DNA of 57,346 bases from Candidatus Micrarchaeota archaeon. Lineage in GTDB: Archaea > Micrarchaeota > Micrarchaeia > Burarchaeales > JACRGF01. The stretch is taken from the NCBI GenBank assembly GCA_016212395.1, contig JACRGF010000039.1, forward strand, positions 1 to 57,346. The letters run 5' to 3'. The position numbers were made by a program, and so were the translations under genes. Position 1 is the stretch's first letter. Each line of letters starts with the position of its first letter. The notes beneath the pieces are model-generated. The model made no database searches. It saw only the letters and a list, made by a program, of their open reading frames with translations, and was not told where the DNA came from. Shown here piece after piece: positions 17,178-17,480 of this stretch.

Positions 17178-17480
17178 TTACCTGTTTCTCTTTACTTTTA
17201 TTCCCAATAGTTTGCAAGCCTGTTCTATTGCTTGCTTGACTTCTCCTTCGCTTTTTGAGCCTGTGCAGATGATTTTTCCGTTTTTGAAGAGCAGGAGGCT
17301 GGCGCGCGGGTGTTTTAATTTCAGGATGGCGCCCGGGAATTGTTCCGGCTCGTATTCGACGTCGCGGACTTTTTGCGCTATGGCGTACAAGTCGAGTTCT
17401 ACTCCGAGCGCGGCAGAGGCGACTATGTTTTCTATTTTGAACTTTGGATCTACGCCGACTGAAGCAGGTTTTTTAACCAA
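17178..17480 (-). CDS. Single-repeat TATA-box-binding-protein (TBP) domain protein, 100 aa
   Basis: KIENIVASAALGVELDLYAIAQKVRDVEYEPEQFPGAILKLKHPRASLLLFKNGKIICTGSKSEGEVKQAI matches one TBP repeat (compare IENIVAS..LDL......EYEPEQFPGLIYR...PK...LIFSSGKIVCTGAKS). The TTG start is preceded by AAAGGTGGT. Neither flank contains a second repeat in any frame. Confidence 0.8.
   Translation of the reverse strand: MVKKPASVGVDPKFKIENIVASAALGVELDLYAIAQKVRDVEYEPEQFPGAILKLKHPRASLLLFKNGKIICTGSKSEGEVKQAIEQACKLLGIKVKRNR

Follow-up and report, generated by a model that had tools for sequence, protein, structure and literature searches.

[quoted passage not shown] Proteins with a single TBP domain have nevertheless been described. 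The halobacterial TbpA carries one TBP domain, the product of a recent truncation, and clusters with genuine TBPs; it is non-essential and lineage-restricted, and the full-length TBPs that occur beside it in a species resemble it closely (Brindefalk et al. 2013, PMC3597702). The monopartite TBP-domain proteins of Thermococcales, exemplified by P. furiosus NP_578195, are stand-alone proteins of ≈95 aa that are distant from TBP, form a separate cluster, and always accompany a normal TBP (PMC3597702). A description of a single-repeat TBP from Micrarchaeota or other DPANN archaea was not found in the literature that we searched. Here we examine such a gene, which we refer to as a half-TBP, in a complete contig of an NCBI metagenome-assembled genome, 57,346 bases long, that was analyzed over its whole length (hereafter, the window).

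The half-TBP gene and its product

The initial annotation of the window proposed a stand-alone open reading frame with one TBP repeat, its own Shine-Dalgarno sequence, start, and stop, and non-coding sequence on both sides. The gene and its surroundings comprise the following features.

17178 to 17480, minus strand: single-repeat TBP gene from the open reading frame listing, with a TTG start and with the TAA stop included (100 aa)
17486 to 17491, minus strand: Shine-Dalgarno-like AGGTGG, 5 nt before the TTG start, by reading of the sequence
16930 to 17045, minus strand: 5S rRNA gene (Rfam RF00001, 80 bits, full model), past the TBP stop codon
17618 to 17893, plus strand: rpl21e (PF01157 in the identical Logan contig), divergent from the TBP gene
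17902 to 19703, plus strand: rpoF (Rpb4-like), DUF655, and ksgA/RrnaAD genes (Pfam families), which continue the conserved block
17502 to 17509, minus strand: TATA-like box TTTAAATA, of putative function, 21 nt before the TBP start codon
17524 to 17533, minus strand: a further TATA-like element, TATATATAAG, in the intergenic region that the two divergent genes share, recognized from the letters alone

The proposal was borne out in each of these respects. On the minus strand, the frame runs from TTG (17480-17478) to TAA (17180-17178), and it cannot be extended upstream because an in-frame TGA (17483-17481) directly abuts the TTG. The position of the start is backed by a 93%-identical relative (P0007, which begins MIKKPASVG...) and by the NCBI gene call on the same contig, which gives the identical 100-aa protein (P0247). 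At orthologous loci, GGTGG or GGTGA stands at the corresponding site before the start. The gene is also found, identical and with identical neighbors, on an independent Logan contig (SRR12113407). The spacers measure 132 nt from the TBP stop to the 5S rRNA gene and 137 nt from the TBP start to the divergent rpl21e, so that neither flank can hold a second repeat, for which ≈270 nt would be needed.

Searches of the window with phmmer (--max) and tblastn (E ≤ 100) in all six frames gave no second TBP repeat, and an HMM built from 135 TBP repeats (--max, E ≤ 1) gave no other TBP-like stretch. A decayed remnant of a second repeat near the gene was ruled out on the same grounds, as there was no tblastn, phmmer, or repeat-HMM match. 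The search for a full-length TBP or a second half that the initial annotation had called for, made here across the 57-kb contig, thus returned neither. We likewise found no TFB gene within the 57-kb window.

The translated protein matches the PF00352 profile once (E = 5e-29; 100.4 bits, with the cutoff at 22.9), with residues 13-92 aligned to profile positions 1-82 of 85, and it contains all of the hallmark motifs listed at the outset (IENIVAS, EYEPEQFPG, and LLLFKNGKIICTGSKS). The full-length TBP models of NCBIfam do not reach their cutoffs (at best 94 bits against 270), and their matches span one half of each model, the N half or the C half depending on the model. Full-length models and cutoffs mis-score half-TBP genes, and database entries for members of the family are labeled either 'TATA-box-binding protein' or, in many cases, 'hypothetical protein'. 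In a phmmer search of the PDB, the half-TBP retrieves TBPs only, with E values of 1e-37 to 1e-40 against the solved TBPs, and it is 40-47% identical to either repeat of the solved archaeal proteins. Bit scores for the N and C repeats are 70.6 and 69.3 in M. jannaschii, 69.7 and 61.3 in S. acidocaldarius, and 61.1 and 65.6 in P. woesei. By identity, the protein lies 8 points nearer the N repeat of Diapherotrites TBPs and 7-9 points nearer the C repeat of the group-D TBPs. Because the NCBIfam, PDB, and identity comparisons disagree, we dropped the assignment of the half-TBP to an N or a C type. The profile alignment suggested in the initial annotation accordingly identifies a single TBP repeat but not its type, the models matching either half.

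An AlphaFold2 model of the half-TBP, built from 58 half-size homologs, has a pLDDT of 82.9 and the element order S1-H1-S2-S3-S4-S5-H2. When this model was compared with the PDB by Foldseek, the 44 best matches were all TBPs; in the best-ranked of these, the predicted structure superimposes on TBP lobes (2Z8U, 1MP9, and 1AIS) with an rmsd of 0.7-1.1 Å over ≈77 residues. Non-TBP folds, such as the N-terminal domain of OGG1, appear in the list only at E > 0.04, and the concern raised initially, that a non-TBP member of the superfamily might match better, is thereby removed. By its profile match and predicted fold, the product is a genuine TBP repeat and not another member of the TBP-fold superfamily.

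Among the 58 half-size homologs, N18, F48, F65, T73, and the stirrup residues E42-Y43-E44-P45-Q47-F48-P49-G50 are invariant, and the first four have aligned counterparts in solved TBPs. We take N18 and T73 to be the minor-groove Asn/Thr pair and F48 and F65 to be the DNA-kinking Phe pair of the yeast and Arabidopsis TBP-DNA structures, and the EYEPEQFPG stirrup is presumably the site contacted by TFB or TFIIB in TBP-TFB structures. This motif is identical in the C-repeat stirrup of the M. jannaschii and P. woesei TBPs, both of solved structure, and in M. jannaschii TBP it is already present in both repeats. Both tails of the half-TBP are basic, with net charges of +2 and +4; across the family, the median N-tail has 15 aa and a net charge of +3, and the median C-tail has 9 aa and a net charge of +2.

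The TBP locus and the half-TBP family

To place the gene in its genomic context, we retrieved loci by homology and searched them with the neighboring proteins of the window. The rpl21e gene lies head-to-head with the TBP gene in 50 of 52 single-repeat loci and in 26 of 27 two-repeat loci, the exceptions being loci without upstream sequence. It is divergent, lies 80-290 nt upstream of TBP, and is usually followed by rpoF and DUF655; on the other side, a 5S rRNA gene is likewise found downstream of TBP in seven related loci. The same slot beside rpl21e holds the divergent two-repeat TBPs of Anstonellales (P0211 and P0237), two near-perfect fusions (P0121 and P0123), the group-D TBP P0135, and the canonical two-repeat TBPs of the Diapherotrites outgroup (P0014 and P0153). 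No TBP gene was found at another site among the informative loci retrieved by homology. Since this slot holds two-repeat TBPs in both Micrarchaeota and Diapherotrites, the half-gene is the positional orthologue of the general TBP and not an extra paralogue. We regard the shared locus as the strongest functional argument for the half-TBP as a general TBP.

The intergenic region between the TBP gene and rpl21e (17481-17617) contains two copies of TTTAAATA, one at 17502-17509 (minus strand) directed toward TBP and one at 17559-17566 (plus strand) directed toward rpl21e, and these may constitute a pair of near-palindromic TATA boxes. The motif occurs at nine sites in the window, compared with 2.0 expected, and none of 100 shuffled sequences reaches nine. 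Similar boxes, TTTAAATA or TTTATAAATA, are found upstream of the orthologues.

Several other features of the contig were recorded along the way. Just past the 5S rRNA gene, genes for an RHH protein (78 aa) and a PIN protein (138 aa) with overlapping stop and start codons (16132-16781, plus strand) look like a toxin-antitoxin module. The large rRNA genes are greatly expanded: the LSU rRNA (45806-50694, minus strand) covers 4.9 kb for a model of 2,987 nt, and the SSU rRNA (52225-56716, minus strand), together with a detached 3′ end (51345-51466, minus strand), covers ≈5.4 kb for a model of 1,478 nt. LAGLIDADG_3 open reading frames lie in this region at 46877-47581, 51433-52137, 53295-53942, and 55715-56365, and a further one (45219-45947) extends into the LSU call at its 3′ end, which suggests that these genes carry several homing-endonuclease introns. 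The 16S-23S spacer contains a tRNA-like element of 56 nt (51073-51128, minus strand) with the anticodon UGC (Ala), in which the acceptor stem pairs poorly and, as aligned by Rfam, 3 nt stand in for the T arm; ARAGORN reports no tRNA across the whole window. Two open reading frames of ≈1,900 aa (631-6483 and 23947-29712, both minus strand) probably encode surface proteins, because the second has NosD/beta-helix repeats in the identical Logan contig. At 40928-44503, a GAF-PAS histidine kinase gene (minus strand) is divergent from a response-regulator gene (plus strand).

The half-TBP belongs to a sizeable family. Two protein searches returned about 160 clusters of single-repeat proteins of 89-134 aa that are 62-93% identical to the query, on contigs of up to 587 kb that are mostly labeled Micrarchaeota. 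No orthologue from a named closed genome turned up among the cluster members. A scan of GTDB with one genome per species and family-specific peptide patterns, by which a divergent second TBP would be missed, returned 403 relatives. The best 80 of these 403 are spread over 80 assemblies, nearly all from Micrarchaeota, with no assembly contributing two loci. They comprise 50 complete single-repeat open reading frames with their own start and stop (on contigs of up to 658 kb), one single-repeat frame that has lost its 5′ end at a contig edge, and 29 two-repeat TBPs, of which two run off the end of a contig. In related loci totaling 0.9 Mb, the TBP-repeat HMM detected no further TBP-like open reading frame. 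Comparisons between genomes show saturation at synonymous sites (median pS 0.80) but a pN of 0.19, from which strong purifying selection on the half-TBP follows. Variants of the basic architecture were also seen: P0355 and P0347 are half-TBPs with Lys-rich extensions of 65-95 aa, and TBP-family proteins with three or four repeats exist as well (P0250, of 272 aa, and the eukaryote-like P0251 and P0327).

The two-repeat TBPs of Micrarchaeota are themselves unusual in the similarity of their halves. Their N and C repeats are 62-81% identical, rising to 90-93% in P0121 and P0123; by the same measure, Diapherotrites TBPs reach 52-60% and three archaeal TBPs of solved structure 43-57%. Each repeat of the two-repeat TBPs from loci L011-L080 and of P0121 and P0123 is 56-85% identical to the half-TBP. 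P0123 (N/C identity 93%) consists of two half-genes fused head to tail, of the type found at loci L013, L014, and L020. P0121 was assembled independently three times (the P0121 and P0123 loci are L085 and L086-L088); its neighbor genes group with the Diapherotrites outgroup, at 47% support, outside the main Micrarchaeota clade. The inter-repeat linker (…YSKVKPPKGFKP…) looks like the C-tail of one half-TBP joined to the N-tail of another. Because the halves are so alike and some of these proteins are literal fusions of half-genes, repeat number appears to be evolutionarily labile in this group.

Across the Micrarchaeota groups, identities are 55-78% for N versus C repeats, 60-84% for N versus N, and 63-82% for C versus C, and the half-TBP of the window is equidistant from the N and C repeats. 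Median pS between the N and C repeats of one gene is 0.53 (0.25-0.26 at loci L028 and L050), compared with 0.70 between different genomes, which suggests a relatively recent duplication or gene conversion, to which shared codon usage may contribute. A neighbor-joining tree of the repeats groups N and C repeats as sisters, and we set it aside as proof of independent duplications because these groupings have bootstrap values of 28-47% on 81 columns. A second neighbor-joining tree, built from four neighbor genes (609 columns) and rooted on Diapherotrites, places the single-repeat lineages as successive basal branches and gathers all 28 two-repeat genomes into a single nested clade (support 72%; 14-75% along the backbone). 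On this topology, by parsimony, one loss, one re-duplication, and later independent fusions are preferred over five or more losses, a preference too weak for us to be sure.

The initial annotation likened the half-TBP to the hypothesized ancestor of TBP. The likeness holds in architecture alone: since the lineage is nested among archaea with two-repeat TBPs, its one-repeat state is more likely to have been regained secondarily than to be a relic. We tentatively suggest, as one possible history, that a large clade of Micrarchaeota carries out all of its transcription with a homodimeric half-TBP and that the two-repeat TBP was re-invented there when the half-gene was duplicated in tandem and fused in frame. 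This would have happened at least once along the stem of the 28-genome clade and again recently in P0123 and P0121. If so, nature would have repeated in these genomes the duplication from which TBP is thought to have arisen.

A possible homodimeric general TBP

We consider it probable that the half-TBP is the general TBP of its host, reduced to one repeat and acting as a symmetric homodimer. On this reading we infer that it dimerizes, that it binds DNA and TFB, and that the genome encodes no other TBP; homodimerization is suggested by analogy with the pseudo-dimeric canonical TBP and with the fusion proteins. Two identical chains would pack into the usual saddle with true two-fold symmetry, and this saddle would bind and bend an AT-rich, near-palindromic TATA box resembling TTTAAATA, contacting DNA through the Asn/Thr pair and two Phe residues of each subunit. 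Either of the two identical EYEPEQFPG stirrups could then offer a site for TFB. The direction of transcription would be set entirely by the contact between TFB and the BRE, as is already largely the case in archaea, and the Lys/Arg-rich N- and C-terminal tails would probably provide non-specific affinity for DNA.

The natural tethered dimer P0123 offers a view of such an arrangement. Its AlphaFold2 model (pLDDT 93.5, pTM 0.83) compares with full TBPs at TM scores of 0.83-0.92 and an rmsd of 1.4-2.4 Å, and this predicted structure indicates that two such repeats can form a saddle. A symmetric TBP also fits the known mechanism in that both repeats of M. jannaschii TBP already carry the EYEPEQFPG motif. 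According to PMC6640164 (citing Cox 1997 and Bell 1999), archaeal TBP binds the TATA box symmetrically and TFB-BRE contact sets the direction, so that a symmetric TBP would be mechanistically tolerable. A homodimer would be expected to present two equivalent TFB sites and to prefer palindromic boxes such as TTTAAA, and it might favor bidirectional promoters, for which the intergenic region shared by TBP and rpl21e would be an example.

Other explanations of the gene differ in how well they accommodate these observations. That the half-TBP is an artefact or a pseudogene, whether a truncated remnant or a mis-assembly that lost one repeat, we regard as next to impossible. Metagenome assemblies do yield TBP chimeras, such as P0189, P0210, and P0331, which we rejected as informative hybrids because they lie on contigs of <1 kb and their sequence type changes exactly at conserved motifs; they are likely chimeric assemblies. 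The half-TBP gene, by contrast, recurs on the independent Logan contig, is under strong purifying selection, and is closely flanked by functional genes with spacers of just 132-137 nt. The same architecture, with start and stop intact, is shared by ≈50 species-level assemblies, and the worry voiced in the initial annotation, that an assembly error had removed a repeat, is laid to rest by the presence of the gene in about 50 independent genomes. Separately, a weak second match at the contig end of locus L013 (6265-6462) was traced to recurring partial copies of its half-TBP gene's 3′ end, likely an assembly artefact.

The remaining alternatives accept the half-TBP as functional and place a second TBP elsewhere in the genome. 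In one, the partner of the half-TBP is a more divergent paralogue with a single repeat, so that two gene products form an asymmetric saddle. Mia14, a closed Micrarchaeota genome (Ca. Mancarchaeum acidiphilum), has two arCOG01764 (TBP) entries in a published table in which most other DPANN genomes have one (Golyshina 2017, PMC5498576, Supplementary Data 4); TBP rows are absent from the supplementary material to the A_DKE and Burarchaeum papers. The sensitivity of our GTDB scan to close relatives only leaves room for such a partner. Against it, the protein searches gave one half-size TBP family only, always at the rpl21e locus, no assembly appears twice among the best 80 of the 403 loci, the 0.9 Mb of loci lack a second TBP-like frame, and the natural fusions unite near-identical copies (90-93%) instead of two different halves, all of which make a heterodimer unlikely. 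The initial annotation had offered a further possibility, a regulator or decoy beside a full-length TBP: a canonical TBP encoded elsewhere would do the general job while the half-TBP modulates it, for instance as a competitor for TFB or TATA half-sites, in the manner of the dispensable TbpA or the monopartite proteins of Thermococcales. The window spans just 57 kb, and every known single-domain TBP protein occurs alongside full-length TBPs (PMC3597702). Such a role is disfavored, however, because the half-gene occupies the conserved TBP locus itself, the ancestral slot beside rpl21e in which the outgroup carries a canonical TBP. Its conservation exceeds what would be expected of a dispensable paralogue, and the ≈50 half-TBP genomes show no two-repeat TBP in lists that reach the two-repeat TBPs of Micrarchaeota at ≈46% identity. 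We therefore judge an accessory or decoy function quite unlikely and favor the half-TBP as a homodimeric general TBP.

If the half-TBP is the only TBP of its host, the duplication-fusion hypothesis becomes directly testable with a natural protein. In that case it could also be asked whether a TATA box is bound by a perfectly symmetric saddle, how polarity is set, and whether promoters become more bidirectional. Neighboring lineages supply graded intermediates, from half-genes through 93%-identical fusions to fusions at 60-80% and 50-55% identity, which together show how asymmetry evolves after fusion.

Comparison with described TBP-domain proteins

The half-TBP shares a helix-grip/TBP-like fold superfamily with the TBP-like domains of RNase HIII and the DNA glycosylases (the N-terminal domains of AlkA and OGG1), which, unlike the half-TBP, are fused to catalytic domains. 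In the Foldseek comparison of the half-TBP model, OGG1 is marginal (E = 0.2, TM 0.38-0.44) relative to the TBPs (E of 1e-8).

Among single-domain proteins, the half-TBP resembles the monopartite proteins of Thermococcales in that it stands alone and has a TBP-like fold, but it differs from them in being a bona fide TBP repeat (100 bits to PF00352). With the halobacterial TbpA it has in common a single repeat of the PF00352 type. Unlike TbpA, the half-TBP sits at the ancestral TBP locus and extends across a phylum-level clade, in ≈50 species whose synonymous divergence is saturated; among the best 80 of the 403 loci, it is not accompanied by a near-identical full-length copy in the same assembly.

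The closest relatives of the half-TBP are the near-symmetric two-repeat TBPs of Micrarchaeota, which share its locus and sequence family and differ in that their two repeats are covalently joined. With the canonical archaeal TBPs (M. jannaschii 2Z8U, S. acidocaldarius 1MP9, and P. woesei 1AIS/1PCZ), it shares the repeat fold, the DNA-contact residues, and the stirrup motif. Where those proteins have two repeats in ≈180 aa, however, the half-TBP has one repeat per chain of 100 aa, and its tails are basic instead of showing the acidic tail typical of many archaeal TBPs.
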